Of a stretch of 64,000 bases of DNA, positions 18,679 through 54,763 are shown piece by piece. Made by a program: the position numbers and the translations under genes. Origin of the DNA: an uncultured Acidobacteriota bacterium. Lineage in GTDB: Bacteria > Acidobacteriota > JAQAZP01. Under the pieces are notes generated by a model, which was not told the origin of the DNA, did not search any database, and saw nothing but the letters and a program-made list of their open reading frames with translations. Location of the stretch: positions 3,330,442 to 3,394,441 of the forward strand of contig CAWIIB010000009.1 in assembly GCA_963836075.1 (NCBI GenBank), in the 5' to 3' direction. The first letter of the stretch is position 1; each line of letters starts with the position of its first letter.

Positions 18679-21405
18679 TCATTCGGCCCGGACGCCGGCG
18701 ATATTGCCCCCGTAGGTCATCCAGTCATTGTAGGCAAGGAAGCTGTGGTCGGCGATATAATCGACCCTGCTCTCCCGGACTTTATACGAATGGAGATAGG
18801 CCTTTGCCTCAGGGTCCGGGCCCTGCAGGGTAAGGATTTCATCCACGCCGTCCTGGTCCGCATCCCCGGCCGAGACTTTGGCGCCATACCAGGTGCCATA
18901 GTAAGGAAAGGCGATGAAATTGACGTTGCCCATCAGGGTCAGGTTGCCACCGTCAAAGTTCCACCCCCGGATGTGACCGGAGAACGAGGGCCCCGGGCCC
19001 GGGGCGGTGAGGATCTCGTCGATCCCGTCGCCGTCGATATCGCCGGCCGCCACTTCCACCCCGAAACGGGGTGTGTTGTAGGCGAAGAAGTTGACCCCCG
19101 GGATCGGGGTGGTGCTGCCGCCGTCGTCGTGGTTCCAGCCCCGCACGTGGGCGCCGAACACCGGCCCGGGCCCGGCCCCGGTGATGATCTCATCGAAACC
19201 GTCGCCGTCGATATCGCCGGTGGCCACTTTCACCCCGAATCGGGGCGTGTTGTAGGCGAAGAAGTTGACCCCCGGGATGGGGAGAACGGTGCCGCTGCCG
19301 TCATGGTTCCAGCCCCGCACGTGGGCGCCGAACACCGGACCGGGTCCGGCGCCGGTGATGATCTCATCCTTCCCGTCGCCGTCGATGTCGCCGGCCGCCA
19401 CGTTGACCCCGTGGCGGTGCGTGCCGTAGGCCATGAAACTGCCCCCGGTCACGGGGGTGCCGCTCATCGACCAGCAGCGGACGTGGGGGCCGAAGATCTG
19501 GCCCGGGCCAGGCCCGGTGATCACTTCGGATGCTCCATCACCATGGAGGTCTCCGCAGGCCACGTTGACGCCATAACCCGGGACGCCGTAGGCCAGCCAC
19601 TGGGCTGCGGGGGTGCGGACCAGCGGCGGGTTGTACCTGCCGGGGCCGGGGCCGGTGACCATGTTGACCATTCCCTCATCCGCTTCCCATGGATAAACGA
19701 ATATGGTGCGCACGGCGGGGGTGTTGTCGATCCGTCCCTCGAGATCCCGGGTCCGGACGGAGAAGGTATGGGCTCCTTCGGTGAGGCCCTGGAGCACGGC
19801 ATGCTGGACGGTGCTGAACGGGCTCCAGCTATCCGAGTCGACCTTCCAGGAGTATTGCAGTCCTTCGGCGGAGCCATGATGGTTGCGACCCGAAAACGCG
19901 AAAGTGAACATGGGTGAATCCACACCCCACTCCGGACCGGACGTGATCGTGGTGTCCGGATCGCGCACGGTGACGAAGTGGTGCCAGCCCATGTCGGCGA
20001 CGCCGGTATCGTCCAGGCCGTCGGTGCGGGTGCTGCCGATGACCCGGGCGTCGGAAAAGTCGCCCGAGTCGACACAGGGGCTCTGCACGGCCTGCCCGGA
20101 CGTGAACTGGCTCAGGTAGTGGTCGCCGCCCGGCCCGGCGGCGAACTCGGGATCGCCGGTGATCATCCCCTCCCCCCAGATGAATGTCACGTCATCGTCC
20201 ACTACGCAGGAGCCCGTACCGCCCTCCACGTCGCAGTGGCTGAATTTGATTGTGCACGGATAGGAGCTGGTGTAATTGCAGACGTAGAGTTCCGGGCCTT
20301 GCCATCCCGCCTCGTCATTCCAGAGTATCGAATTGACAATGACCAGGCTGTCCGCCTGCCCGGGGGATGGACCGTGAAATGACCTGTTGAAGTAGATCCC
20401 GCCGCCCTCGCCGGCGCTGTTCCCGTAGAATGTACTGCTGTTGATGGTGTGATTGCCGCCCCACTCGAAGGCGATCCCGCCGCCGCTCCCGGCATGGTTC
20501 TGCACAAAGATGTTGTTCACCAGGAAGGAGCTTCCACCGATCAAGTAAATTCCGCCGCCCAGGTCCGCGTCGTTCCAGCGAAATACGTTTTTCGAAATCT
20601 CCCCCGGCTTGCTACTGAAACAGCAGATAGCACCGCCACGGCTGGGGGCTTCCATGTACCCTCCGGCTTCATTGCCGATGAAGGTGTTCTCCACGATGGT
20701 GGGGATAGAATCATTTCCACAGAAGATTCCGCCGCCCCCATAACCGTAAGTCGTACTGCCAGTGACATTGTGTGAGATGGTGTTCAGGGCGATGCGTGGA
20801 CTGCTGCCTTCGCTGCAATAGATGCCTCCACCGTCGTGAGCCCGGTTCCCGGTGATGATGTTGCCCACGATGGTGGGGGAGGCGCCGTTACCACAAACGA
20901 TCGCTCCACCCACAGTGGCCCGGTTGCCGGTGAGAATGTTGTAGGCGATTCGCGGTGAACTGTTTTGACAGAGGATGGCGCCGCCGCCAAAAGTAGTCCC
21001 GTAGCCATTGCGGATAGTGAACCCCTGCACAACCGATTTCTCGGACTCCCCACTTTGAAAGATGAACCCGCGGTGAGCGGTGGGACTGTCGACACGGCCG
21101 CAATCGATGATGCAGAAGTGGGTCTCGCCAGCCGACTTGACGGTGATCGCCTTGCCGTGGAAATCGATATCCCTGTTGCCGTCACCTGTGTACAGACCGT
21201 TGGCCACCAGCACCGTGTCGCCGTCAGCGGCGGCGTCGATCCCCGCCTGGATCGTGGGCTGGTCGGCCGGCACATGGATCGCGGCCGCCATGACCGATGC
21301 CGCCGGTATGGTGATGAGGATGAAGAAAACGAGAGCGAGTGCGGTGGAAAGCGGTGCGCGGTTGTGGGGATTCGATGCCGATTGACCGATCATGATGGCC
21401 TCCAT
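18679..21405 (-). CDS. Secreted right-handed beta-helix protein with C-terminal FG-GAP repeats
   Basis: Signal/TM segment, then PbH1-like repeats (N-x-I-x-G-N-x-A-x-x-GGGI). Four GDIDGDGxDEIITGAGPGPVFGAHVRGW repeats follow. Confidence 0.65.
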   Translation of the reverse strand: MEAIMIGQSASNPHNRAPLSTALALVFFILITIPAASVMAAAIHVPADQPTIQAGIDAAADGDTVLVANGLYTGDGNRDIDFHGKAITVKSAGETHFCIIDCGRVDSPTAHRGFIFQSGESEKSVVQGFTIRNGYGTTFGGGAILCQNSSPRIAYNILTGNRATVGGAIVCGNGASPTIVGNIITGNRAHDGGGIYCSEGSSPRIALNTISHNVTGSTTYGYGGGGIFCGNDSIPTIVENTFIGNEAGGYMEAPSRGGAICCFSSKPGEISKNVFRWNDADLGGGIYLIGGSSFLVNNIFVQNHAGSGGGIAFEWGGNHTINSSTFYGNSAGEGGGIYFNRSFHGPSPGQADSLVIVNSILWNDEAGWQGPELYVCNYTSSYPCTIKFSHCDVEGGTGSCVVDDDVTFIWGEGMITGDPEFAAGPGGDHYLSQFTSGQAVQSPCVDSGDFSDARVIGSTRTDGLDDTGVADMGWHHFVTVRDPDTTITSGPEWGVDSPMFTFAFSGRNHHGSAEGLQYSWKVDSDSWSPFSTVQHAVLQGLTEGAHTFSVRTRDLEGRIDNTPAVRTIFVYPWEADEGMVNMVTGPGPGRYNPPLVRTPAAQWLAYGVPGYGVNVACGDLHGDGASEVITGPGPGQIFGPHVRCWSMSGTPVTGGSFMAYGTHRHGVNVAAGDIDGDGKDEIITGAGPGPVFGAHVRGWNHDGSGTVLPIPGVNFFAYNTPRFGVKVATGDIDGDGFDEIITGAGPGPVFGAHVRGWNHDDGGSTTPIPGVNFFAYNTPRFGVEVAAGDIDGDGIDEILTAPGPGPSFSGHIRGWNFDGGNLTLMGNVNFIAFPYYGTWYGAKVSAGDADQDGVDEILTLQGPDPEAKAYLHSYKVRESRVDYIADHSFLAYNDWMTYGGNIAGVRAE

Positions 21406-21499: not shown

Positions 21500-21973
21500 T
21501 CAGGACGACCCGCCTCGTCCGGGACCCTGGCCGTGACGCGTTCGGCCCTGGCCACCCTGCCAGTGGCCCTGGTTGTTCCATAGCGGAATCTGGTGCAGGG
21601 ACCGGAGGCGCACCATCAGTCCCCGGGACGTGTTGAGGACCTTGTGGGCCTTGCCGGGCCCCTCATCTCCGACAAAGTACTTGACCTTCAGCTGGTCCCC
21701 CGGCTCGACGGAGAATCCGATGTCATCCATCGCTTGCGGCGGGGCGAGGAGAATGGTCACCGGGTGATCTTTGTCACCTTTCGGGGCGAGGCTTACCTGC
21801 ACCACTTCGATACCGCCCTCACCGGCAATGCGGCTGACCGTCAGCACTTCGCCCTCCACGGTCTTCAGCGAGGAGCGGGGGGCAGGCCCGTCCGACCCCT
21901 CTGCCGAGACGGCCAGGCCCAGCAGCAGGCCGCAGCAGAGAAGGAGCAGACTGTAGTGGCGGAACAGCCTCAC
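21500..21973 (-). CDS. Small secreted protein (OB-like core) with a Gly/Arg/Gln-rich tail
   Basis: GTG start at 21973 with GGAG 7 nt upstream, overlapping the upstream stop as GTGA. Signal peptide LLLLCCGLLLGLAVSAEG. The tail reads QGGQGRTRHGQGPGRGGSS. Confidence 0.5.
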   Translation of the reverse strand: MRLFRHYSLLLLCCGLLLGLAVSAEGSDGPAPRSSLKTVEGEVLTVSRIAGEGGIEVVQVSLAPKGDKDHPVTILLAPPQAMDDIGFSVEPGDQLKVKYFVGDEGPGKAHKVLNTSRGLMVRLRSLHQIPLWNNQGHWQGGQGRTRHGQGPGRGGSS

Positions 21974-22947
21974 AGGACGTCTCCTCCCAACCAGAGCCGG
22001 CCCGGCGTGTGGCGGCCCACGGAGATCCCGATGGCCAGCGAGACGTCCGGCGACGCGTTCCCCAGGCCCACCAGCACCCGGCCATACCAGCGGTAGCGGC
22101 CGGTGGTCCGCACGGATGCGCCGAAGTTGAACACCTCGCCCGTGTCCTCCACGGCTTCCTGTGCCGCGCTGATCCAGCCGGCAAGTATCACCCGGTCGGA
22201 GGCCAGCGGGTCGCTCTCCATCCCCACGTTGAGATCCAGCACGTCGTTCAGTTCGCCCCACGAGGGATCGCCCAGCCAGTTCCAGCCGATCCGGCCGTAG
22301 AGTGTGGATGACCAGAAGCGGTAGCCGCTCCAGAAACCGATCCGGTAGTCGGTCTCACCGGTGCCCATGCCATTGTCGGCGTCGGCTGTGGGGAGTTTAA
22401 CTTCCAGTTCGGCATCCAGGCGAAAAACTTTCACGCCGCCGCCCACCAGGCGCCGGGAGAGGGCTACGAGGATGTCCCCGATACCGTTGGCCGTTTCGTC
22501 ATAATGTGAAATATCGCCTTCACCCCCGTCGCCACCTCCGCCTCCGCCTCCGCCACCACCGCCACCACCGCCACCACCGCCACCGCCACCGCCGCCGTCA
22601 CCACCGCCACCACCACTGCCACCACCACTGCCGCCACGCCGCCTTCTCTCGTTCTCCCCGCCCACCGGCATGGTTCCGGCGCCGGTGCGTACCACGCTGT
22701 AGGACGTGTCCATCACCAGGTAGGGCAGATTGACCCTCAGCTGCCAGGCATCGCCGAGAATGTACTGCAGGTTCGCGGCCCAGGTGTCCACCTTGTCGTC
22801 GGTGCCGTAGTCGCCGGTGGTCCAGGAGGTGATCAGGGTCCATTCGCCCACCGGTTCGGCCACTGCCGCGGTGGAGGTGAGCAGTGCGAGGGCGAGGAGC
22901 AGGGCCTGGACGAATCGGCAACAGCCGGCAGTTCTGTTCCACCTCAT
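21970..22947 (-). CDS. Putative outer-membrane beta-barrel protein with an internal poly-Gly tract
   Basis: Signal peptide (ALLLALALLTSTAAVA). The remainder has alternating beta-strand-like segments. A 22-Gly run interrupts it. Confidence 0.45.
   Translation of the reverse strand: MRWNRTAGCCRFVQALLLALALLTSTAAVAEPVGEWTLITSWTTGDYGTDDKVDTWAANLQYILGDAWQLRVNLPYLVMDTSYSVVRTGAGTMPVGGENERRRRGGSGGGSGGGGGDGGGGGGGGGGGGGGGGGGGGGGDGGEGDISHYDETANGIGDILVALSRRLVGGGVKVFRLDAELEVKLPTADADNGMGTGETDYRIGFWSGYRFWSSTLYGRIGWNWLGDPSWGELNDVLDLNVGMESDPLASDRVILAGWISAAQEAVEDTGEVFNFGASVRTTGRYRWYGRVLVGLGNASPDVSLAIGISVGRHTPGRLWLGGDVL
22522..22635. repeat. Trinucleotide (GCC/ACC/TCC)n low-complexity tract encoding poly-Gly
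   Basis: Codon-by-codon reading gives R-GGSGGGSGGGGG-D-(G x22, 22531-22596)-D-GG-E-G-D. Confidence 0.9.
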
Positions 22948-22950
22948 GGA

Positions 22951-24315
22951 TCAGCCTTTCATCCCGTATTTCGAGATCTTGTAGCGCAGGGCCCGTTCCG
23001 ATATCCCCAGCTTGCGGGCGGCGCGGGACTGCACGCCGCTGGCCGCGGCCAATGCCTCGGTGATGGCCGATTTCTCCATCGCCGCTACCCGGCCGGGCAG
23101 CGAGTCGTTCTCTTCGTCCTGCGGGGCGCCGTTCTCGTGGCGCGATCCCAGCACCGCCGGGGGAAGGTCGCCGGCGGTGATCTGGTTCCTGCGGGCCAGC
23201 ACCATGCCTCGTTGCACGGCGTTCTCCAGCTCGCGGACATTGCCCGGGAAATCGTAGGCGATCAGCAGGTCCATGGCCTCCCGGGAGATCGACGCGGCGG
23301 TGCCGTCTTCGCCGTGCTTGGACAGGAAGTGATCCACCAGCAGCGGAATGTCCGATTTGCGATTGCGCAGCGGCGGGATTTCAATATTCACCACGGCCAG
23401 CCGGTAGAAAAGGTCATCCCTGAAGTCGCCCTTTTCGATGGCCTCCGGCAGGTTGCGGTGGGTGGCGGCGATAACCCGCACATCCACCGGCACGGTGGTG
23501 TTGGATCCCACGCGCTCCAGGGATCTCTCCTGGAGCACCCGCAGCAGCTTGACCTGGACCTCTGCCGGCAGGTCCCCGATCTCGTCGAGGAAAATGGTGC
23601 CGCCGGAAGCAACCTCGAACCGCCCCTGCCGCTCGCGATCGGCCCCGGTGAACGCCCCCTTCTCGTGCCCGAAGAGCTCGCTCTCCAGCAACTGGCTGGA
23701 GAGGGCGCTGGCATTCACGGCCACGAACGGGCCGCCGGCCCGGGGGCCGGCCCCGTGAATCGCCCGGGCCACCAGTTCCTTTCCCGTGCCGCTTTCCCCC
23801 TGCACCAGCACCGAGACATCGGAGCGGGACACCCGGGAGATGAGGGAGAGCACCTCGCTCATCACCCCGCCGGCGGTGACGATGCCGGGCACCGACTCGA
23901 ACCTGGCCAGCCGCGCCTTGAGGTCAATGTTTTCCCGGTGCAGCCGGCGTGCATCCAGCAACCGTCGCACCAGGTGTTCCACCTCGTCCAGGTCCAGAGG
24001 TTTGAGCAGGTAGTCCGCCGCCCCCTGTTTGAGACAGGCCACCGCATCCTCCACCGTACCAAAGGCGGTGGCCAGGATCACGGCCACTTCGGGGTTGACC
24101 CGCTGGATTTCCTCCAGCAGATGGGTCCCGTCCATCCGCGGCATTCGGATGTCGCTGATACAGAGGTCCGGTGCCTGCCGCACCACGGCATCCAGTGCCT
24201 CCCGGCCGTCGCCGGCCTCGGTCACTTTGGCGCCGAGGTCGCGGAGAAAGCCTGCAAGTTCTTCGCGCTGGGAGCGGTCGTCGTCCACCACCAGAATGCG
24301 GGCATCGAGGTTCAT
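22951..24315 (-). CDS. Sigma54-dependent response regulator (NtrC/AtoC-type enhancer-binding protein)
   Basis: REC domain (ILVVDDD...), an AAA+ domain with GESGTGKE and GAFTGA, and a C-terminal Fis-type HTH. Confidence 0.9.
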   Translation of the reverse strand: MNLDARILVVDDDRSQREELAGFLRDLGAKVTEAGDGREALDAVVRQAPDLCISDIRMPRMDGTHLLEEIQRVNPEVAVILATAFGTVEDAVACLKQGAADYLLKPLDLDEVEHLVRRLLDARRLHRENIDLKARLARFESVPGIVTAGGVMSEVLSLISRVSRSDVSVLVQGESGTGKELVARAIHGAGPRAGGPFVAVNASALSSQLLESELFGHEKGAFTGADRERQGRFEVASGGTIFLDEIGDLPAEVQVKLLRVLQERSLERVGSNTTVPVDVRVIAATHRNLPEAIEKGDFRDDLFYRLAVVNIEIPPLRNRKSDIPLLVDHFLSKHGEDGTAASISREAMDLLIAYDFPGNVRELENAVQRGMVLARRNQITAGDLPPAVLGSRHENGAPQDEENDSLPGRVAAMEKSAITEALAAASGVQSRAARKLGISERALRYKISKYGMKG

Positions 24316-25943
24316 ACTGTTTCTCCGTCGCCGCCGGCGGGCAGCTTCAACCGGGCCAGCGCACCGCCATTTTTCCTGCTGCGCAGGGTCGCCGAACCGC
24401 CGTGTTCTTCAGCCACCCGCCGGACCAGGGCCAGACCCAGGCCAACACCGCCGGCCTGGTTGGTGACAAAGGCGTCAAACAGCTGCTCCGCCGTGGCGTC
24501 ATCCACCCCGGGGCCTTCATCCGACACGCCCACCTGGACGAACCCGTTCGCTGCCGTGGTCTCCACTCGAACCTCGCCGCCGGCCGGGCTGGCCTGGATC
24601 GCGTTGCGCACCAGGTTGATCAGCGAACGGCGGATCGACTCCGGGTCCACCGGGGCCGGACAGGGGGGGCCGGACAGGGTGAGGCGCACGCCGGTGGATT
24701 CGGCCTCGTCGGTGAGCAGCTCCACCACCTCACCGGAGATGACCCGGAGATCGGTCTGTTTCCTGGACCGGCCCACCGGGCTGGCCAGTTCGAGGAATTC
24801 GCGAAGAATCGCTTCCAGCCGTCCTATCTCGCCGCGGACCTTGGCCGCAAAACGACCCACATCGTCCTGCGGTGGGTGAGTCCGTCCGATACGCTGTGCG
24901 GCGAGGCTGATGGCGTTGAGCGGCGACCGCACCTCGTGAGCCAGGCCGGCGGTGAGGGCGCCGGCGGCCGCCAGCCGCTCACTGCGCCTCCGTGCCGTCT
25001 CCACCTCGGCCAGACGCCGGGCCGCCGCTTCACGCTCCACGGCGCGACTTCTGGTGAGCAGGGCGATGAAGACCAGGGCCAGACTGAACACGGAGAGCAC
25101 GATGCCCACCATGGCCGTCCGGCGCACCGCGGATGCCGAAGCCGCGGCCAGGGGCCGCCCGTCCATCCCCACCCGCAGCGATGCCTGAAAACCGGCCGGT
25201 GCGCTCACCGGTACCACCACCTCGTACACTTCGCGGCCGCGCACCGTGCGACGGCCGTCACCTGCGTCCAGTCCCGGCGGGATCGGTTCGCCATCCCAGC
25301 TGGCCTCCAGCGGCTCCCCACCCGGGGAGACGGTGTAGCCGAGGTAGAGCACGCCTCCGGACCCGGCCAGCCGTTGGAGCAGGTTGGCCGCGCCGATGGT
25401 GCCGGAGAAGGCGAGGTTTGACCGTGCGTGCACCCTGACGATTACAGCGCCGCCGTCGACTGTCCGCACCACAGCAGCGATGTGTTCCACGCCGTCTTCC
25501 ATCTGTGGCCCGAGGATCATCTCGTCGGCCTTTCCCTCGATCACTTCAACCGCCTGCCGGCGCAGCGCATCGGGAACCGGTGCTCCCACGGATACGCTCT
25601 GGCTGCCCGCCCGGTCGAGGTGGACGATGGAGTCGAGGTCGTTCTGTTCTGCCAGGGCACCGGCTGCAGCAGCGGTGAGGCCGCCGGATTGCTGCAGGAC
25701 GGCGAGAATCCGTGTGTTTTCAAGAACCTTGGCCGTGGAGGTCTCCTCGATCTCCCGGGCCGCGGTGGAAGCCGCTTCGAGGCCCGGACCGAGGGTGCGG
25801 GCGAGGAGAGTGGCCTGGGCGGCCAGCACCTCGGCGGTTTCCCGCCGCTGGTTACGCCCTTCGTGGATCGCCCATGCGGCCAGTGCCATGGCGAGCACCA
25901 GCAGCGGAATCATGGTCGTCAGTGTTCGGAGCCTTCTCAACAT
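24312..25943 (-). CDS. Sensor histidine kinase
   Basis: Two TM segments flank a periplasmic domain. H-box AGLAHEVRSPLNAI and the HATPase N/G boxes are present. Overlaps the response regulator gene by 4 nt. Confidence 0.85.
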   Translation of the reverse strand: MLRRLRTLTTMIPLLVLAMALAAWAIHEGRNQRRETAEVLAAQATLLARTLGPGLEAASTAAREIEETSTAKVLENTRILAVLQQSGGLTAAAAGALAEQNDLDSIVHLDRAGSQSVSVGAPVPDALRRQAVEVIEGKADEMILGPQMEDGVEHIAAVVRTVDGGAVIVRVHARSNLAFSGTIGAANLLQRLAGSGGVLYLGYTVSPGGEPLEASWDGEPIPPGLDAGDGRRTVRGREVYEVVVPVSAPAGFQASLRVGMDGRPLAAASASAVRRTAMVGIVLSVFSLALVFIALLTRSRAVEREAAARRLAEVETARRRSERLAAAGALTAGLAHEVRSPLNAISLAAQRIGRTHPPQDDVGRFAAKVRGEIGRLEAILREFLELASPVGRSRKQTDLRVISGEVVELLTDEAESTGVRLTLSGPPCPAPVDPESIRRSLINLVRNAIQASPAGGEVRVETTAANGFVQVGVSDEGPGVDDATAEQLFDAFVTNQAGGVGLGLALVRRVAEEHGGSATLRSRKNGGALARLKLPAGGDGETV

Positions 25944-25971
25944 GCGCCTATTTTACGCCGTAAAGCCCCGT

Positions 25972-26487
25972 TTAGCGACCGCCTCCGCAACTTCCGCCGC
26001 CGCCACCGCCGCCGCCGCGGGAGCCGCCATTGCCGCCTCGTTGACCGCTGCCGCTGCCGGTCCCGGGGCATTTCGGGTTCTGGATGCCGTCTCCGGGTAT
26101 TCCGCCGCAGGAGCCATCCCGGGTACGGGTCCTGGTCCACTGCTGGTTCATCTCACCGGTCCCGTTGCGGAACTTATACGAGGCACCGGTACGCCGGACT
26201 CTCATCCCCCGGGCCAGGGGAATACCGTCTTTCTCCATTCCGTCCAGCAGGTCGAGGCGCACCTGGTCACCGTCCAGCACCAGGCCGCGGCAGGTGCCGG
26301 CCTCGCCCAACCGGACCTGCATCCGCTGGCCTCCGGTGGTGAGGATGGTCAACTGGTCGAACCCCTGGGCGTCGGTCAATTCCACGACCCTGCCCTGGAT
26401 GCTGGGCGCCTGACTGTCACCCGCCATGGCGGTCGCCGCGCAGATGGCAAGTGTCAGGATCCACAATGCTGCGGTTCTCGTTTTCAT
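25972..26487 (-). CDS. Small secreted protein (OB-like core) with a Gly-rich tail
   Basis: Signal peptide MKTRTAALWILTLAICAATAMA and RBS GGAGGGAG. The tail reads GSGSGQRGGNGGSRGGGGGGGGSCGGGR. Confidence 0.55.
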   Translation of the reverse strand: MKTRTAALWILTLAICAATAMAGDSQAPSIQGRVVELTDAQGFDQLTILTTGGQRMQVRLGEAGTCRGLVLDGDQVRLDLLDGMEKDGIPLARGMRVRRTGASYKFRNGTGEMNQQWTRTRTRDGSCGGIPGDGIQNPKCPGTGSGSGQRGGNGGSRGGGGGGGGSCGGGR

Positions 26488-26513
26488 CTGCTCCCTCCCT
26501 CACCGGTTTTTGT

Positions 26514-26557
26514 GTAAAAAAATGGCGGTCATGCATCACCATCACACGACCGCCATT
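26514..26557 (-). terminator. Rho-independent-type terminator after 26580..27050
   Basis: On the minus strand: AATGGCGGTC, a 17-nt loop, GACCGCCATT, then T7. Confidence 0.5.
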
Positions 26558-26579
26558 CGGTTCCTGCTCGTCCCCTCAG

Positions 26580-27050
26580 TTAGCGGAGAGCGAGCGCAAA
26601 GTCCTGAACCAGGGTCTCACCCTCGGCGACGGTCACCGGAGTCAGTTCGGTGGGCAGGTAGCCGCAGGCGCAGGCGCGCATCAGGTAGTCAGCGGCATCG
26701 AGGTTTTCAATGACATAGACGCCGTTGGCATCGGTCTCGACCCGGGTGGCCATTCCCGCGCCGCCGCCGTGGTAACCGCCGCCAAAACCACCGCCACCGC
26801 CGCTGCCGGATCCGCCGCCGCTGCCCCAGCCGTGGTCGCCGCCGTGGAACTGCGAGCCGCCGCCGCCGCTGCAGCCGTCCGCCGGGCGGATGGTCACGAA
26901 GGCTCCTTCGATGGGCAGACCGGTGTCCGCGTCGGTCACCGTGCCGGTGACCGTGGCTGTCTGGGCCATGGCGGTGGCGCCGGTCAGGGCCACGGCCGCC
27001 ACAAAGATGAGGGCAGTCTTGATCAGCGATGATTTCGTGAGTTTGAACAT
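26580..27050 (-). CDS. Secreted carboxypeptidase-regulatory-like (CarboxypepD_reg) domain protein with a Gly/His-rich insertion
   Basis: Signal peptide. GTVTDADTGLPIEGAFVTI ... TDANGVYVIENL ... YLP is split by SGGGGSQFHGGDHGWGSGGGSGSGGGGGFGGGYHGGGAG. Confidence 0.55.
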   Translation of the reverse strand: MFKLTKSSLIKTALIFVAAVALTGATAMAQTATVTGTVTDADTGLPIEGAFVTIRPADGCSGGGGSQFHGGDHGWGSGGGSGSGGGGGFGGGYHGGGAGMATRVETDANGVYVIENLDAADYLMRACACGYLPTELTPVTVAEGETLVQDFALALR

Positions 27051-27300
27051 CTTCTCTCCTTTTAGCAGTTCACATGAATCCTTAAAATGATGAAAACCTT
27101 CTGATTGAGGCCCGATTCAAATCCTCCTTTCCCCCTGGTTTCAAACCGTGGTGGTATGGGCAACCCGTCAAATCGATCTCTGCAGTTGGTGTCGAGCCAT
27201 TCGTGATGACCGTGACACCAGATTCATGGAGCAAGAACCGTACCAGACGAAAACAAAGGACTTACGGGCGGGAATTCGACATTTCGGGCGGATGGCCGGG

Positions 27301-27330
27301 CCCCGGTTCGACGAAATTGTCGAACCGGGG
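27301..27330 (-). terminator. Perfect 12-bp hairpin just downstream of the HTH gene (no U-tract)
   Basis: CCCCGGTTCGAC, gaaatt, GTCGAACCGGGG, lying 13 nt from the stop at 27343. Confidence 0.35.
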
Positions 27331-34366: not shown

Positions 34367-36127
34367 ATGTCGATCACGGGCAATGACAAACCAGGGAAGA
34401 TCGAGCACATGCTGGCCGACAGTGATCTCCCCTTCGCTCACCGCAAAATGATGCTCAAACAGCTGATCAAGCACAGCAGCGAGGAGACGGATTCCATACT
34501 GGAGTCGATCCTCAACGGTGGTGAGAACAACAAACTGGACAAGACCCTGGCCCGCAAGGTCAAGTCGTACAACGAGAAGCTCAAGGCGCTGGAGGAGGGC
34601 CCGGTGCGGCCGGGCACCTTTCTTGGCTCCCGCCCGCACAGTAGTGGTGCGGTGACCCGTGTGCAGGTGAGGCTGGAGGACGGCACGACGGTGTTTCCGC
34701 TGCTGCCCCGCCCCCGTCTGCTGCGGGAACTGCGGCGGGGGGACTCCGTGGTGCTGGACGGTCAGGCCCAGGCCGTCATCTCCCGTGAACCCGCCGCTGA
34801 GTGGTCGGGGGAGGTGGCGACCTACGAACGGCGGATCGGTCCGGAGCATGTGGAGATTTCCGTCCGCGGGGACGAGCGCCATGTCTTCGACGCCTCCCAC
34901 GGGGTCATCGATCTGCTGAACCGGGAGAGTGTGGAGCCGGGCCGCCGGTTGCTGATCTGCCAGCGGCGGAAGTTCGTCATGGGGGTCGTGCCCGAGGAGG
35001 AGGGGCGGGTCCACTACCGCTATCTCGACCGGATGGCGGTGCCCGATGTGGTGGCGGAGCGGGACCTGGGAGATCCCCCGGCCTACCTCGACGAACTGAT
35101 GAGTCATCTGCGGATGGAGATGACCAGGCCCGATCTGCGCCGCCGCTACGGTCTGCGCCGCTGCGCGATGAAGCTGCTGGCCGGGATCAGCGGTTCGGGC
35201 AAGAGCTACTCGCTGCTGGCCCTGTGGAATGCGATGTACCAGCTGATGGCCGAAGTGACCGGAGTGCAGGTGGAGGATCTGCCGTCCCGGGTGATGCGCT
35301 TTCGGCCGGCCCAGCTGCTCAGCCACTGGTTCGGGGACAGTGACAGGAATATCGACCGCTTTTTCGGTGAGGTGCACCGGCTGGCCGACGAAAAATTTGC
35401 CGGCCCCGGGGGCAAGGTCTATGAACTGCCGGTGCTGGTGATCCTCGAGGAAGTGGATGGGATGAGCCGTGCCCGGGGGGGTGACGACATCTATGACCGG
35501 ATCATGTCCACCCTGCTGGAACTGCTTGACCCCACACGCCAGGCGCTCAGCGACCGCATGATCATCTTGGTGGGCACCACCAACGTGCCGGAGCAGATCG
35601 ATCCGGCCTTCCTGCGCCGGATCGGGGGGACCATCGAAACCTTTGGCCATCTCAATCGGAGGAATTTCAGGGAGGTGCTGCGCAAGCGGCTGCAGCGGAT
35701 ACCCCTGGCTGCCCGGGACGGAATGGGCGATGACGATCTGCTGCAGGGGATGGTCAACGAACTGACCTCCTGGCTTTTCAGTTCCAACGGAGAGGACCAC
35801 GGCCAGGTGGAGATTTCTCTGGTGGGCTCCGCCGAGCCGCTGGTCCACCGCCGCAGGGACTTTCTCACCGCCGGCATGGTGGACCGGGCCGTACAGCAGG
35901 TGGCCGATCTGGCCTGCACGGAAGAGGATGCCGGCAGCGCCAACCCCGGCCTGACCCCGGCGATGCTGAAAAAGGCGCTGGACCGCCAGGTGCGGGCCAT
36001 TGTGGACCTGCTCAGCCCGGGGAATGTGGGCAACTATCTGCAGTTGCCCGATGGGGTGCGGGTCCAGGGCATCAGGGTCATCGAGCGGCCGGTGATCCAT
36101 TCTTTTGAGCTGGTGCGGGCGAGCTGA
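34367..36127 (+). CDS. Classical-clade AAA+ ATPase with a coiled-coil and OB N-domain (PAN/Mpa/ARC-like architecture)
   Basis: Coiled-coil KLDKTLARKVKSYNEKLKALEEGP is followed by VRPGTFLG...VQVRLEDGTTVFPLL...LRRGDSVVLDG (OB-like). A second OB-like segment follows. Walker A is GISGSGKS, Walker B VLVILEEVDG, SRH ILVGTTNVPEQIDPAFLRRIGG. Confidence 0.8.
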   Translation: MSITGNDKPGKIEHMLADSDLPFAHRKMMLKQLIKHSSEETDSILESILNGGENNKLDKTLARKVKSYNEKLKALEEGPVRPGTFLGSRPHSSGAVTRVQVRLEDGTTVFPLLPRPRLLRELRRGDSVVLDGQAQAVISREPAAEWSGEVATYERRIGPEHVEISVRGDERHVFDASHGVIDLLNRESVEPGRRLLICQRRKFVMGVVPEEEGRVHYRYLDRMAVPDVVAERDLGDPPAYLDELMSHLRMEMTRPDLRRRYGLRRCAMKLLAGISGSGKSYSLLALWNAMYQLMAEVTGVQVEDLPSRVMRFRPAQLLSHWFGDSDRNIDRFFGEVHRLADEKFAGPGGKVYELPVLVILEEVDGMSRARGGDDIYDRIMSTLLELLDPTRQALSDRMIILVGTTNVPEQIDPAFLRRIGGTIETFGHLNRRNFREVLRKRLQRIPLAARDGMGDDDLLQGMVNELTSWLFSSNGEDHGQVEISLVGSAEPLVHRRRDFLTAGMVDRAVQQVADLACTEEDAGSANPGLTPAMLKKALDRQVRAIVDLLSPGNVGNYLQLPDGVRVQGIRVIERPVIHSFELVRAS

Positions 36128-36173
36128 TCCGGAATCGCCGTCCGGACGGGGAAAGATCGAGGAGGAGAGGCAG

Positions 36174-36509
36174 ATGGCCGACGAACGGAGGAGACCGAAA
36201 AGAGAGGAGACCGGGCCAGGTCCCGGTGGCCTCGGTGATGTGTTTGCCGGACCCGAAACGGGCGGGGCGGTAACGGTTTGCCATGGACCGTACAGCGAGG
36301 ATCTGCCGGTGGGCAACATGAGTGTGGGTGAGGTCCGGCGCCGGTTCTCGGACCGCCTGGACATCGACCCCCAGAGCCAGGCGGTGATCGACGGCAACGA
36401 GGTGGACGACAGCACCGTGCTGCGCGGCGGCCAACTGCTGGCCTTTATCCGGCAGGCTGGTGAAAAGGGCGGGAGGAGACGGTCCCACGGGGGAGGATCG
36501 CCATGTTGA
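36174..36509 (+). CDS. Second ubiquitin-like (ThiS/MoaD-type beta-grasp) protein with an internal GG followed by an 11-aa tail
   Basis: RBS GGAGGAGAGG. VTVCHGPYSEDLPVGNMSVGEVRRRFSDRLDIDPQSQAVIDGNEVDDSTVLRGGQLLAFIRQAGEKGG-RRRSHGGGSPC. Overlaps the next gene by 7 nt. Confidence 0.6.
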   Translation: MADERRRPKREETGPGPGGLGDVFAGPETGGAVTVCHGPYSEDLPVGNMSVGEVRRRFSDRLDIDPQSQAVIDGNEVDDSTVLRGGQLLAFIRQAGEKGGRRRSHGGGSPC

Positions 36510-37453
36510 GCAAGCTGGCCGCAAGGCGGGCGGAGGCGCGGTCCGCTTCGCGCCGGCAGACGGTGCACCAGGTGACCATCAAGGGTGAGCTGGTCTCCAC
36601 GGCCACCCCGGAGGGGCAGCCGGTCTGCATGAAACTGAAGGACCTGCTGGGGCTGATCTCGACCCACGGGGATCGATCGCTGGAGACCGGAGGCCTGTTG
36701 CCCGACGGGGTCAAGCTGGTCCGGTCCCGGGGGCCGGTGACCGTCTGGACCTACCAGCGGCCACCCCAGGTGCACAACCTGAGGTGGATCGCCGCCGACT
36801 CTCCCGTGCCGTTCGGAAAGGGCAGCACCTACCGCTCGGTGCGTATCGCGCTGCCCTACCTGGTGGTGCTGGCCGTGTTTATCACCGGGAGGAACAACCG
36901 TCTGCAGCTGTCGCAATACAACGAGTGCTTTTTCCGCAACGAACCTCTGAAGAGTGTTGAGGACCAGCTGTTCTACCCGGCACTGCTCAACTGTTCGAAG
37001 TTCAACCCGCAGGAGGGGCACCCGCTTTCCTGGATCTGCACCGCAAATATGGACCTCAGGCGTCTGGGCCGGCTCCCGGACGAGAACGAACGGATGCGGG
37101 GCAGTATGAATGCTCTGCTGCACTGCCTGCTGGAAACCGGTTACAACCATTCCAGCGAACACCACGAGGAGACAAGCTGGTTCACCGAGTCCGCCACGGT
37201 GGACCCGCGGGTCGCCACCGTCGAGAGGTGGGAGCAGGCCACCGCCAAAGACAGTCTTTTCGTCCTTGACGTCCCCTGGCTCAAAACCGGCAGGAGCCTG
37301 GGGCAGGTGATCGAAAGGATATTCGACAATGCCGGCAGTTCCCGCGGACGGCTGGCCACTTCCAATGACCTGATGCGGCTGATGGCCAACAACAGCGAGC
37401 GGCTGCCGGCGAAGGAAGAAGCGCAGGGGGTATTTATCGATGAACTGTTCTGA
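36503..37453 (+). CDS. Candidate prokaryotic E2-like protein (assigned mainly by position in the Ubl-E2-JAB-E1 order)
   Basis: 316 aa and translationally coupled on both sides. Candidate active-site region LFYPALLNCSKFNPQEGHPLSWICTAN. No canonical HPN motif. Confidence 0.4.
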   Translation: MLSKLAARRAEARSASRRQTVHQVTIKGELVSTATPEGQPVCMKLKDLLGLISTHGDRSLETGGLLPDGVKLVRSRGPVTVWTYQRPPQVHNLRWIAADSPVPFGKGSTYRSVRIALPYLVVLAVFITGRNNRLQLSQYNECFFRNEPLKSVEDQLFYPALLNCSKFNPQEGHPLSWICTANMDLRRLGRLPDENERMRGSMNALLHCLLETGYNHSSEHHEETSWFTESATVDPRVATVERWEQATAKDSLFVLDVPWLKTGRSLGQVIERIFDNAGSSRGRLATSNDLMRLMANNSERLPAKEEAQGVFIDELF

Positions 37454-38348
37454 GGACAGACTGCTCACGCCGATCTACCTGCGGACGAGCGAGGAGATGC
37501 ACTGGCCGGAGGACACGGTGTTTTACATGCTCACCGGCAGCGGTCTCTTTCTCTGCCGCAACAACGAGCACTTCCGCAGCTGTGTTCCGGCCCGCGGCTG
37601 GCCCGGGGAACTGCCCGGTCAGGAAAAGTTCCTCGATCTGCACTATCCCCGGCTGCCCCGGCGGCTGCTGGAACGGGCGGTGGGCTTTTTCGAAGCGGTG
37701 GGGCGCAAACACGATGCGGAAGCGGCACTGCTCCTGGCCTGGGACAGCGAGCGCGAGGTTTACCGCCTGGTGATTCCCCGGCAGCGTTGTACCGTGTACC
37801 TCAACTGGCAGGGGGACACCTCGCCCCAGGGCGTGCACTACGACCTTCCGGAACGCGTGCCCGAGACCTGGATCATTGTTGGCGACATCCACAGCCACGT
37901 CGATTTTTCGGCATACTCCTCGGCCACCGACCAGCACGACGAGCACTACCGCACTGGTCTGCACATCGTGGTGGGCCGCATCTACGACGAGCCGCCCCAG
38001 TTTCATGTGGAAGCCACGGTGGACGGTATGCGCTTTCCCGTCCAGCCGGAGGATATTTTCGAGGGCTACGATTCCCGGAGAAGCGATTTCCCCGAGCAGT
38101 GGTTCGACTGGCTGAAGATCGAACTCGGTTCCGCTTTCACATACTCGGACAGCAGCAAATGGAGTTCCGGCACTGGTTCCTCCGGCTGCAGCGGCCATGG
38201 CCACACGGCCTGTTCACCGATGCCGGCCCCCCGGGGCGGTACCACCGGTTATTCGGTCGCTCCGCTGGAAACGTATCGCAGTTCGGGAAACGGCGGGAAA
38301 AAGAAGGGCGGTGGCCGCAACCGTGACGGCCGGGGGAAACGTCGATGA
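37440..38348 (+). CDS. JAB/MPN (JAMM) metalloprotease with a Gly/Lys/Arg-rich tail
   Basis: EAALLLAW... and an exact JAMM spacing, H-S-H-VDFSAYS-S-AT-D. Overlaps the upstream gene by 14 nt and the downstream gene by ATGA. Confidence 0.8.
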   Translation: MNCSEDRLLTPIYLRTSEEMHWPEDTVFYMLTGSGLFLCRNNEHFRSCVPARGWPGELPGQEKFLDLHYPRLPRRLLERAVGFFEAVGRKHDAEAALLLAWDSEREVYRLVIPRQRCTVYLNWQGDTSPQGVHYDLPERVPETWIIVGDIHSHVDFSAYSSATDQHDEHYRTGLHIVVGRIYDEPPQFHVEATVDGMRFPVQPEDIFEGYDSRRSDFPEQWFDWLKIELGSAFTYSDSSKWSSGTGSSGCSGHGHTACSPMPAPRGGTTGYSVAPLETYRSSGNGGKKKGGGRNRDGRGKRR

Positions 38349-39175
38349 GCGGGGTCGGGAGGGAACAGGTGGTTCTGATGCCCGCTCTGGCCGACCACAC
38401 GGCGGTCAAAATCATCGGTCTGGGCGGAGTGGGCGGCATCGTGGCCCGCTACCTGTCCATCTTCCTCGCCTCGCTGGACCGCGACCTGCGGCTGGTGCTC
38501 ATCGACGGCGACGAGTTCGAGCCGTCCAATGCCACACGGATGCTGTTCTCCGATCACGGCAACAAGGCCGCGGTCACTCGCGCCGAACTCCGGGAACGCT
38601 TTGCCGACACGTCCCTCATGCTGACTGCCGTGGAGCAGTATGTGAAGCCGGACAACATTCACCGCCTGATTCAGAATGATGACGTGGTCATCCTGGCCGT
38701 GGACAACCACGCCACGCGAAAGCTGGTCAGCGAGCACTGCCGGAGCCAGTTGAACGACGTGTGCCTGATCTCGGGGGGGAATGACGGCGTGGGCCCCGAC
38801 GGGTCGGGTTCCCGGCGGCGGGGCACATACGGCAACTGCCAGATTTATTTGCGCCGGGGCGGCCGGGATCTATGTCCCCCGATCACCCGGTATCATCCCG
38901 AGATCCGGGAACCGGCGGATCACAGCCCCGCCGAGGAGAACTGCACCGAACTGATCAAGTCGGTGCCGCAGATCCTGTTCGCTAACCTGGCCGCGGCATC
39001 GGCCATCCTCAACGCCTTCTGGCTCCATTGCTGCTCCGCGCTGCACTACAGCGAACTCAGCTTCGACATTGCCGATGGTCTGATGCGGCCCATGCCCCTG
39101 CCGGCCCCTCTCGTCATCGCGAGGAGCCCGAAGGGTGAAGCGGCGCTCTCTTCGGATGTCTTTCCGGTTCAATGA
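38345..39175 (+). CDS. ThiF-family E1-like protein (PRTRC/Bil-type)
   Basis: VKIIGLGGVGGIVARYL...LVLIDGDEFEPSNATRMLF...VILAVDNHATRKL. Confidence 0.8.
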   Translation: MSGVGREQVVLMPALADHTAVKIIGLGGVGGIVARYLSIFLASLDRDLRLVLIDGDEFEPSNATRMLFSDHGNKAAVTRAELRERFADTSLMLTAVEQYVKPDNIHRLIQNDDVVILAVDNHATRKLVSEHCRSQLNDVCLISGGNDGVGPDGSGSRRRGTYGNCQIYLRRGGRDLCPPITRYHPEIREPADHSPAEENCTELIKSVPQILFANLAAASAILNAFWLHCCSALHYSELSFDIADGLMRPMPLPAPLVIARSPKGEAALSSDVFPVQ

Positions 39176-39216
39176 GATTGCTTCGTCGCCGTCTTCGACG
39201 GCTCCTCGCAATGACA
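39176..39216. repeat. REP-like palindromic element ending in the 12-mer CTCGCAATGACA
   Basis: GATTGCTTCGTCGCCGTCTTCGACGGCTCCTCGCAATGACA lies directly after the operon stop. The same 12-mer occurs at 51806-51817 and inverted at 51763-51774, with a partial copy at 39272-39282. Confidence 0.6.
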
Positions 39217-39294
39217 GCGAGAGAACGAATGTTTCTTCCGCTGACTTCCCGTGGCCCCCGAGGGGCGGGGACTCGCAATGAGCTGCGCAGGGTG

Positions 39295-40059
39295 TCAGCC
39301 GTCGAGGAGGATACTTGAGCAGGTGAGCCCCGATTCGGCCTTGAGCAGCTCGGAGATGTCCACCGTCTTCACCTGGAAACCTGCCGCGCGGACTGCGGAG
39401 ATGGTCCGCCCGAACTCCCGGTGGAGGCAGACAAAGCGGCCGGCCCGGAGGGCGTTGGCCGCCTCGGCTTCGTCGTCATCCACTGGAATGACGGTGAAAC
39501 CGGCGAAGGGGCCGGGGTCGAAAAGGCCCTGGCGGGCCAGCAGGGTCTGGTCGTCCAGAGCGGAGACCGCCGACTTGAGGTGCAGGCAGCCTTTCATGGT
39601 CACCGGGACCACCGTGTAGCCGTGGGGCGACAGCAGGCGGGACAACTGGTCGATCCCGTCCTGGTTGGTGCGCGCGGAGAGGCCGACATAGAGGGTCCGG
39701 CCCACACGGAGCACGTCGCCGCCTTCCAGGGTGCCCGGCTCCACGATCCGTTCCAGCGGTCGGTAACCGGCCAGCACCGGCTCAATACCGGCCACCTCAC
39801 CGCGCCGGGACAGGACGCCCGGCCGGGCAAGCACGGCCAGTTCATCCACCACCACTGCCGTGTCCTCGATGAACGTGCAGTCGGGGTGCGCAATGTTGAC
39901 ATCGGTTTCCAGCACCTGGTACCCGCAATCCTCGAGCATCCGGCGGTAGCCGGCATGCTGGGCCCGTGCCAGTTCGAGGTTGATCGGCTCCCGTCGGCGG
40001 AAGCTCAGCTCGCAGCGGTTGATCCGGGGTGAGACCACGTGGGTCAGGGCAATATTCAT
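39295..40059 (-). CDS. Dimethylarginine dimethylaminohydrolase/amidinotransferase-family protein
   Basis: 254 aa with the DDAH-like pattern (FIEDTAVVVD, EGGDVLRVG, C-terminal GLTCSSIL with a catalytic Cys). Confidence 0.7.
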   Translation of the reverse strand: MNIALTHVVSPRINRCELSFRRREPINLELARAQHAGYRRMLEDCGYQVLETDVNIAHPDCTFIEDTAVVVDELAVLARPGVLSRRGEVAGIEPVLAGYRPLERIVEPGTLEGGDVLRVGRTLYVGLSARTNQDGIDQLSRLLSPHGYTVVPVTMKGCLHLKSAVSALDDQTLLARQGLFDPGPFAGFTVIPVDDDEAEAANALRAGRFVCLHREFGRTISAVRAAGFQVKTVDISELLKAESGLTCSSILLDG

Positions 40060-53783: not shown

Positions 53784-53983
53784 GGATCAGGAATTCTGCT
53801 GGGTCAGAGATATCATACTGAAGATTCACGAAATCGTGAACTGAACGGCAATCGTCACCCGGAGAAATCTTGACTCCCGAATAAGATGCCACTATTCTCT
53901 GATATCCCTCTGGACATTTAGAGGTATGAATCGCTGCATAGAATTTGGGCGGGCCGTTCCGGCCGCTCTGGAAGGAGATTGAC

Positions 53984-54763
53984 ATGAATCGTTTGAAGAT
54001 CATTGCCATGGCGCTGGCGGTCATCATGATGATCGCCGGATTCGCCGAAGCCCGCGGGCAGAGCGCTGAAGATCCGAGCCAGGCCAGCCCGGCTTCCCCG
54101 GCGGCGGCAAGCCTGAGCGACTACGAGAAGAACTCCCTTCTGCTGATGCGCCAGGAGGAAAAACTGGCCCGTGACGTGTATCTGACTCTGGGCGAGAAGT
54201 ACAACCTGCCGGTATTCAACAACATCCCCCAGGCCGAACAACGCCACATGGACCAGTTGGGACAGTTGCTGGAGAAATACGGCATGGACGATCCAGTTGC
54301 GGGGCTGGCGCGGGGAAAGTTTAACAGCGGCGAGATGCAGAGCCTCTATAACAAGTTGGTGGCCCAGGGCAGCAAGAGTCTCGCGGATGCTCTGCAGGCA
54401 GGTGCCACCATCGAAGACATGGACATTCACGATCTGGAGCAGGCCCTGGCCGGGGGCGTGGACAACCGGGACATGGTGCGGGTGTACCGCAACCTGGCCA
54501 AGGGTTCACGCAACCACATGCGGGCCTTCACCTCGCAGTTGAAGGCCCATGATGCGGTATACAAGGCCCAGTATATTTCCCAGGCTGATCTGGAGGCGAT
54601 TATGAACTCCGACTGGGAACGCGGCCCGGCTGACGGCCAGGGGCATGGCAGGCAGGGGCGTGGCGGCAAAGGCCGGGGACAGGGGCGCGGCCAGGGGGGG
54701 GGCCATGGCCAGGGCGGAGCTCCGGCGGATTCCGGCCAATCTGCTGATTCGGACAAGCCCTGA
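53984..54763 (+). CDS. Secreted DUF2202 ferritin-like protein with an (R/H)G(Q/G)G-repeat tail
   Basis: Signal peptide. LLLMRQEEKLARDVYLTL...NIPQAEQRHMDQL. The tail reads GQGHGRQGRGGKGRGQGRGQGGGHGQGG. Confidence 0.7.
   Translation: MNRLKIIAMALAVIMMIAGFAEARGQSAEDPSQASPASPAAASLSDYEKNSLLLMRQEEKLARDVYLTLGEKYNLPVFNNIPQAEQRHMDQLGQLLEKYGMDDPVAGLARGKFNSGEMQSLYNKLVAQGSKSLADALQAGATIEDMDIHDLEQALAGGVDNRDMVRVYRNLAKGSRNHMRAFTSQLKAHDAVYKAQYISQADLEAIMNSDWERGPADGQGHGRQGRGGKGRGQGRGQGGGHGQGGAPADSGQSADSDKP

Follow-up and report, generated by a model that had tools for sequence, protein, structure and literature searches.

What does a sigma54-type two-component system control when it is embedded among four secreted proteins with glycine-rich tails or insertions? 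The question is raised by a locus in a 64,000-nucleotide stretch of DNA (hereafter the window; GC content ~65%) from an uncultured Acidobacteriota bacterium (contig CAWIIB010000009.1). Translation of the window and a Pfam scan identified six minus-strand genes, A–F, at positions 21500–27050, and every minus-strand feature listed in the original prediction, an earlier description made from the sequence alone, was recovered in its place. The genes do occupy this span, but the unit reaches ~27324 once its promoter and enhancer are counted. On balance, we favor reading it as a self-contained sigma54-dependent envelope-response cassette of a narrow Acidobacteriota clade, with ZraPSR-like wiring and a metal or envelope cue. 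Its features, all on the minus strand and given in the direction of transcription, are as follows:

27307–27324, minus strand: upstream activator site 1 (UAS1), candidate enhancer, the perfect palindrome TTCGACAATTTCGTCGAA
27275–27292, minus strand: UAS2, second candidate activator site, CCGCCCGAAATGTCGAA, with the GTCGAA half-site in common with UAS1
27230–27245, minus strand: sigma54 −24/−12 promoter, TGGTACGGTTCTTGCT
27051–27229, minus strand: long 5′ leader of A with conserved sequence blocks
27159–27167 (CGGGTTGCC) and 27123–27135 (GGGGGAAAGGAGG), together with CCTCAATCAGAAGG, minus strand: leader blocks conserved in eight loci
26580–27050, minus strand: A, secreted CarboxypepD_reg domain interrupted by a ~39-aa Gly/His loop; 156 aa; first gene behind the sigma54 promoter
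26516–26557, minus strand: intrinsic terminator/attenuator between A and B, GGCGGTCGTG...CATGACCGCC followed by T7
25972–26487, minus strand: B, small secreted protein of an unnamed family; 171 aa
24312–25943, minus strand: C, sensor histidine kinase
22951–24315, minus strand: D, NtrC-family sigma54 enhancer-binding response regulator
21970–22947, minus strand: E, predicted 12-stranded outer-membrane β-barrel of the COG4313/FapF type; 325 aa
22504–22647, minus strand: poly-Gly insertion in E, an imperfect (GGN)n repeat within the low-confidence loop of residues 83–150
21500–21973, minus strand: F, small secreted protein with an OB-fold (oligonucleotide/oligosaccharide-binding fold) core at residues ~36–122; 157 aa; GTG start

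The six genes are closely packed. As read from the sequence, the stop codon of C and the start codon of D overlap (ATGA), 3 nt separate the D stop from the E start, and the GTG start of F overlaps the E stop (GTGA); a gap of 28 nt separates B from C. The four accessory proteins A, B, E and F all carry signal-peptide-like N-termini, with signal peptides and cleavage sites assigned by eye throughout.

A homologue search across 5.8 billion clusters returned 13 homologues for B, 5 for E and 20 for F, all of them close; those of B are all at least 50% identical. We assembled 20 loci from the homologue contigs together with genome and metagenome scans, and because each scan yielded only three loci, the family is rare in the scanned collections. 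The named loci belong to Acidobacteriota, including Ca. Polarisedimenticola svalbardensis. The order A-B-C-D-E-F was observed in L001, L004, L005, L006 and L010/L011, and also in L013 and L016/L017 as far as their contigs extend. In total, at least ten Acidobacteriota loci with varying flanks carry the cassette in an unchanged order, so that the co-occurrence in relatives proposed by the original prediction as a check on the module was indeed seen, the genes being conserved together and in order. The cassette is not invariant in content: B is absent from L014/L015, and A is absent from L008 (Ca. Polarisedimenticola), the most distant locus, with 42–72% protein identity. Since one lineage dispenses with A and another with B, the core consists of the kinase, the activator, E and F. 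The translational coupling of E and F extends to distant lineages as well.

To locate sigma54 promoters, we scanned both strands of the window with a position weight matrix (PWM) for TGGCAC-N5-TTGCW, which was built by hand from the published consensus, so that its scores are relative only. The top score on either strand, 16.2 bits with the runner-up at 12.8, fell on TGGTACGGTTCTTGCT, ~180 nt upstream of the A start codon and beyond the span of the original prediction. This site fits both GG-N10-GC and TGGCAC-N5-TTGCW and is suitably positioned upstream of a gene. The orthologous site, TGGTAYRSWTHTTGCT, gave the top sigma54 score in every homologous locus covering the region, and the block just upstream of the promoter, TAAGTCCTTT-TTT, was invariant in a five-locus alignment but for one G/A position. 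Sigma54 promoters had been proposed upstream of 21973, 22947, 26487 and 27050; the proposal held for A only, as no comparable site was found before B, E or F in the scan of the window. E and F leave no intergenic room for a promoter, and B is preceded by the terminator. A PWM match inside D (23957–23972, 11.9 bits) is coding sequence, and intragenic sigma54 matches in the other loci are weaker and variable. L008 is informative here: ~85 nt before its B gene lies the consensus TGGCACACCGCTTGCA (TGGCAC-N5-TTGCA), with TTCGTCGAA-like repeats just upstream. Because this locus lacks A and has the consensus site before B, the promoter of A evidently also serves B–F, judging from its placement.

The palindrome TTCGAC-N6-GTCGAA had a single zero-mismatch occurrence in the window, namely UAS1, and no other palindrome-bearing regulon members were found there, the palindrome being present at the cassette only. 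It lies 78–79 nt upstream of the promoter TGG in L001, L004, L005, L006, L010/L011, L013 and L016/L017, and the L014 copy carries one mismatch. UAS2 departs from the palindrome at two positions, with its GTCGA core invariant in the five-locus alignment. Activator D may bind these TTCGAC-N6-GTCGAA sites. The cluster therefore does contain a sigma54 promoter, and the earlier description of an envelope module under sigma54 control stands, with the best sigma54 match of the window located upstream of A and conserved together with a palindrome at fixed distance.

A second conserved element follows A. The A–B hairpin with its T7 run has a folding energy of −27.8 kcal/mol (z = −2.68), and its stem and T-run are kept in all loci examined (five aligned loci and L014); fold energy and conservation together confirm what had been described as a terminator-like hairpin. 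Only ~25 nt lie between the end of the terminator and the B ribosome-binding site. Because this conserved terminator follows A, and B–F are tightly packed or overlapping, the system probably autoregulates via read-through. In the simplest model, A would be the abundant product and B–F would be made by read-through, which would probably amount to positive autoregulation of the two-component system.

Three strongly conserved blocks, CGGGTTGCC, GGGGAAAGGAGG and CAGGCNTCAAYCAGAAGG, stand out across eight loci in the 180-nt leader of A. We found no Rfam match, no small open reading frame (ORF) conserved in frame and no conserved RNA structure in this leader, RNAalifold giving only 8 pairs without covariation; on these Rfam, RNAalifold and ORF checks, a riboswitch, a leader peptide and a structured RNA were rejected. 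The leader blocks and the Shine-Dalgarno sequence together provide several GGA motifs, and in L008 a GGAAAGGA motif lies directly at the B ribosome-binding site. That the leader blocks bind a CsrA-type or other protein is a guess.

The two regulatory proteins are of recognizable kinds. Kinase C consists of a first transmembrane helix (TM1), a ~240-aa periplasmic domain, TM2, and the DHp and CA domains, without HAMP or PAS. Pfam assigned HisKA and HATPase_c, and no Pfam family in the periplasmic domain, which shows 78% column identity with H154 and H172 invariant. D comprises a REC domain (Response_reg, PF00072, E = 1.8e-30), Sigma54_activat (PF00158, 4.7e-70), AAA_lid_14 (PF25601, 5.5e-24) and a Fis-type HTH_8 domain (PF02954, 4.2e-12), all above cut-offs, which is the composition of an NtrC-family activator. 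The GAFTGA loop, which contacts sigma54, was found by eye in the translation of D (...HEKGAFTGADRE...). The best NCBIfam models were ZraS and AtoS for C, and AtoC (top), NtrC and ZraR for D, all below their equivalog cut-offs. Specifically, for the ZraS and ZraR equivalogs (NF007688 and NF007689), the kinase scored 157.2 against a cut-off of 479 bits and the activator 431.4 against 760 bits.

The first gene encodes the best-classified accessory protein. A matched PF13620 (CarboxypepD_reg) with 57.5 bits against a gathering cut-off of 32.3 (E = 1.8e-15), the match being split in two around the ~39-residue Gly/His insertion CSGGGGSQFHGGDHGWGSGGGSGSGGGGGFGGGYHGGGAG (residues ~60–99). Orthologues keep this loop at differing lengths, its GGGG and H-G positions being invariant. 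Its score above the gathering threshold ties A to the transthyretin-like CarboxypepD_reg domains, from which it differs in being a stand-alone, secreted, single-domain protein with a conserved ~35–40-aa Gly/His loop, encoded directly behind a sigma54 promoter.

B and F, on the other hand, belong to no Pfam or NCBIfam family. Profile searches with the full proteins and with their cores, at E ≤ 10 in Pfam and E ≤ 1 in NCBIfam, matched no relevant family, BOF included; there were only unrelated weak matches to ATP-synt_ab_N (E = 0.23, B core) and FusH (E = 0.012, F). A PDB profile search returned nothing for F and only chance-level matches for B (E of at least 0.3), so the searches with hidden Markov models that the original prediction had recommended for the small proteins did not give them a name. 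In the homologue alignment, B shows one invariant Cys (GSC), a Gly/Arg tail and a near-invariant GGGR-COOH terminus, and its C-terminus in the window reads ...RGGGGGGGGSCGGGR. The predicted structure of F is a five-stranded closed β-barrel with structural matches to OB-fold proteins, in agreement with the guess that it was OB-like. Its tail in the window, QGGQGRTRHGQGPGRGGSS, follows the conserved pattern W-x-GG-x-x-R...G...RGG, with W138, G140, G141, R144, G148 and G152 invariant, and is therefore conserved in sequence as well as composition. A shared outline of B and F had also been described, for which we found no statistical support. BLASTP returned nothing between them, and an hhalign value of 63% came from the signal peptides and fell to 3.8% after these were trimmed; B and F were accordingly rejected as paralogues.

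Among known OB-fold proteins, F is best compared with the BOF family of periplasmic stress proteins, of which YgiW adjoins qseBC and YdeI/OmdA associates with the porin OmpD. Like these, F is small, secreted and of the OB-fold type, it is encoded next to a two-component system, and its gene is translationally coupled to that of a barrel, which suggests by analogy that F may be a partner of barrel E. It differs from the BOF family in having no Pfam match and in its conserved Gly/Arg/Gln tail, which BOF proteins are not known to have.

No Pfam family matched E at E ≤ 0.1. An AlphaFold model computed from a six-sequence alignment was of low confidence (predicted local distance difference test score, pLDDT, 55) and comprised 12 long strands, a predicted structure consistent with the earlier nomination of E as an outer-membrane-barrel candidate. 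A profile of the C-terminal half of E retrieved 1519 representatives from 1.8 billion proteins, and 17 of the 36 sampled representatives matched PF13557 (Phenol_MetA_deg; best E = 1.5e-9). Because its remote homologues match PF13557, E belongs with COG4313/PF13557 through intermediates, and it is predicted to be a divergent 12-stranded barrel of the COG4313/FapF type. The motifs G-x-G-D and L-P-T-x-D...G-T-G are kept in E; in Pput2725 (PDB 4rl8), a channel of the COG4313/PF13557 group, the conserved cluster includes Asp92 and Pro119-Thr120-Gly121 (PMC4493636). E resembles these channels in the size of its predicted 12-strand barrel and in the shared motif cluster. The N-terminal ~14 residues of Pput2725 fold into the barrel lumen (PMC4493636), whereas E appears to lack such a plug segment: in the low-confidence model, its first strand begins at residue 34, ~3 residues past the likely cleavage site assigned by eye. 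The predicted model also shares the barrel fold of FapF (PDB 5o65), although E has no N-terminal extension and is without the periplasmic coiled coil and plug helix of that protein. Sequence matches to FapF were insignificant (NCBIfam E = 0.36, 9.6 bits against a cut-off of 700; PDB profile E = 0.04), and no fap-like genes were present in any locus examined. Matches of E to “Pizza” propellers were short and low-complexity-like and were set aside.

Two features distinguish E from both COG4313 channels and FapF. Its C-terminal extension ends in Leu rather than in an aromatic residue, and a loop of ~68 residues (83–150) with up to ~45 Gly, forming a ~45-residue poly-Gly, connects predicted strands 3 and 4. 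Given this position and standard barrel topology, the poly-Gly loop would be extracellular. Gly/Ser-rich loops occur at the same position in 24 of 150 representatives of the wider family, so the loop of the window protein is an extreme of a family trait.

We then considered the Gly-rich segments as a group, counting as Gly-rich any stretch with at least 9 Gly among 15 residues in all six frames of the window. Such stretches were found at only seven places, three of them being the frames in which A, B and E are actually read. The segments are kept at the same positions in orthologues of A, B, E and F, with invariant residues inside them, so that their presence is not peculiar to the window, an outcome on which the original prediction had staked its reading. 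At the DNA level, the tracts at 25975–26052 (B) and 22504–22647 (E) on the minus strand are imperfect (GGN)n repeats. P0027, 96% identical to B, has a longer Gly tail, and the Gly-rich runs of E orthologues are variable in length and clearly shorter than the ~45 residues in the window. As imperfect GGN repeats vary in length between close relatives, the pattern suggests that slippage drives the length polymorphism of the Gly tracts.

From the genes present, the promoter with its palindrome, the terminator, the synteny and the fold classes, we infer the following mechanism. Kinase C would detect a periplasmic cue via its large, conserved, family-specific sensor domain and phosphorylate the NtrC-type activator D, which would bind the tandem TTCGAC-N6-GTCGAA sites and fire the single sigma54 promoter upstream of A. 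Most transcripts would end at the terminator, making A, the secreted transthyretin-like protein with its Gly/His loop, the main output. Some would read through to B-C-D-E-F, providing positive autoregulation and the synthesis of barrel E and its coupled periplasmic OB-fold partner F.

This wiring resembles that of ZraPSR from Enterobacteria, which likewise has a two-TM kinase with a periplasmic sensor and without HAMP or PAS, an NtrC-type sigma54 activator, and a sigma54 promoter leading to a small secreted protein next to the two-component genes. ZraP ends in a Gly/His/Met-rich tail. In systems of the CpxP/CpxAR type, a two-TM kinase and its regulator similarly induce small periplasmic proteins encoded alongside. 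Unlike in ZraPSR, the accessory proteins here are a transthyretin-like β-sandwich, an OB fold and a member of an unnamed family instead of the helical CpxP/Spy/ZraP fold; an outer-membrane barrel is encoded inside the operon; the output gene is co-oriented and separated by a terminator, not divergent; and the host belongs to another phylum. In references cited in PMC6737893, ZraSR is described as responding to zinc, and ZraP as its chaperone and repressor in the periplasm. For the present cassette, the signal is most plausibly a metal or some other envelope perturbation, a metal being the likeliest. The hints of metal involvement are the invariant H-G in the A loop, the invariant Cys in B and a DUF2202 (ferritin-like) gene in L008, and these residues may be involved in metal binding.

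Several points weigh against an envelope-response cassette of this kind. As the scores of C and D lie far below the NCBIfam equivalog cut-offs, the likeness to ZraSR is architectural only and not a matter of membership. B and F are β-rich or OB-type rather than of the helical CpxP/Spy/ZraP fold, and the F tail is rich in Gly, Arg and Gln and poor in classic metal ligands. One lineage manages without B and another without A. The kinase and activator need some promoter for their basal expression, and none was found. The predicted barrel of E comes from a model with a pLDDT of 55, and its COG4313 relatives are tied to the uptake of hydrophobic compounds, not to stress (PMC4493636).

That last point leads directly to a different reading, in which the locus is a substrate-uptake module: E would import a hydrophobic or amphipathic compound, B and F would act as periplasmic carriers, and the two-component system would sense the compound and turn on the proteins that take it up. 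E keeps the family G-D and P-T-x-D/G-T-G cluster, the COG4313 family has been linked to uptake of hydrophobic molecules (PMC4493636), and the top NCBIfam model of D is AtoC, a catabolic regulator. However, the conserved cassette includes no inner-membrane transporter or catabolic enzyme and its flanks vary; the first and presumably most abundant product, A, is a Gly/His-loop β-sandwich with no obvious role in transport; and E appears to lack the barrel-inserted N-terminal segment of the solved COG4313 channel. We consider uptake unlikely on these grounds. A role in secretion or display is also conceivable, with E acting in the manner of FapF to pass an unfolded Gly-rich chain (the B or F tails, or A) across the outer membrane, either to build a Gly-rich matrix on the surface or a layer that binds minerals or metals, or to serve as a surface-exposed sensor threaded through the barrel like RcsF. 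A narrow 12-stranded pore would accommodate the flexible Gly-rich segments on all partners, even distant lineages couple the translation of E and F, and the two weak hints of FapF, from NCBIfam and from the PDB profile, are independent of each other. These FapF matches are nevertheless insignificant, E is too short to contain the FapF periplasmic coiled coil and plug helix, the cores of A and F are well folded, and there are neither FapA-E homologues nor amyloid-type imperfect repeats; secretion or display is, in our estimation, quite unlikely.

A more speculative variant would make the cassette a new kind of trans-envelope sensor, in which the plugless barrel E is filled or threaded by a flexible Gly-rich chain (its own poly-Gly loop, the F tail or the B tail) and surface events pass through F and B to the novel periplasmic domain of the kinase, similarly to RcsF-OMP/Rcs, with A as the induced effector. 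We regard this as a long shot; if true, contact with a surface metal, mineral or matrix would be relayed to the kinase. Finally, the genes could be chance neighbors without functional unity and their Gly runs a by-product of (GGN)n slippage in GC-rich DNA. The imperfect GGN repeats, the difference in tract length between near-identical strains (P0027 and B) and the ~65% GC of the genome would all be expected in that case. Yet the gene order is kept down to 42–72% protein identity despite varying flanks, start codons overlap stop codons, conservation extends to the promoter, the enhancer and the terminator, and the Gly segments, rare elsewhere in the window, persist at the same orthologue positions with invariant residues. 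Synteny and motif conservation thus lead us to exclude chance, to which we assign next to no probability. The sigma54-dependent envelope-response cassette remains the reading that we favor.

The surroundings of the cassette differ between loci. Its usual upstream neighbor is a DDAH/ADI-like gene, which adjoins the cassette promoter in syntenic loci. In the window, a ~12-kb block (27343–39300) parts the two, and the promoter and palindrome stay with the cassette. This block contains genes for a Prok-RING_1 protein, two ThiF/E1-like proteins, a proteasomal-type AAA ATPase, a Prok-JAB protein and several unknowns, as well as a 422-aa helix-turn-helix-like gene on the minus strand, and GC content dips to 0.535 at 28–30 kb. 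The block has the look of an inserted island for bacterial ubiquitin-like conjugation and may serve in defense. Directly downstream of F, at 18679–21405 (minus strand), lies a gene for a 908-aa secreted protein with a NosD/DUF1565-like β-helix and FG-GAP repeats, preceded by an AT-rich spacer with a sigma70-like site. A homologue occurs downstream of F in L007, and in L005 the C-terminal half gives a match within a Peptidase_C25/FG-GAP gene located upstream of the cassette, whereas none was seen in L001, L004 or L014; because its position and presence vary in this way, the 908-aa gene does not belong to the core cassette. Downstream of the cassette in L004 (12408–12881) and L005 (17133–17603), an ORF of 156–157 aa without a Pfam family lies between MatE and UbiA genes. 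It has the same length as F; tblastn with F showed nothing there above the reporting threshold, a direct comparison not having been made.

DUF2202-domain genes were encountered twice. Elsewhere in the window, at 53981–54763 on the plus strand, a secreted DUF2202 (ferritin-like) protein (E = 4e-56) ends in a Gly/Arg/His tail, GQGHGRQGRGGKGRGQGRGQGGGHGQGG, that resembles the cassette tails. No sigma54 site was found upstream of this gene, and a sigma70-like TTGACT/TATTCT pair was recognized by eye. The DUF2202-domain gene of L008 (4749–5168, minus strand) is divergent from the cassette and lies behind its own sigma54-like site, TGGCACGGGACCTGCT.

Each part of this cassette is of a known kind; what had not been described is the way in which they are combined, the two small-protein families without a name and the conserved segments rich in Gly. 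Soils and sediments harbor abundant Acidobacteriota, and almost nothing is known about envelope signaling in this phylum. The cassette offers a compact regulon that can be read from its sequence, with a promoter, an enhancer, an attenuator and four secreted products, two of which belong to nameless protein families. Conserved poly-Gly and Gly/Arg segments are unusual in periplasmic and outer-membrane proteins, and their function would be of interest to envelope biology generally. Should the cue be a metal or contact with a surface, the cassette would give a first point of entry into the means by which this clade perceives the mineral-rich habitat it lives in.

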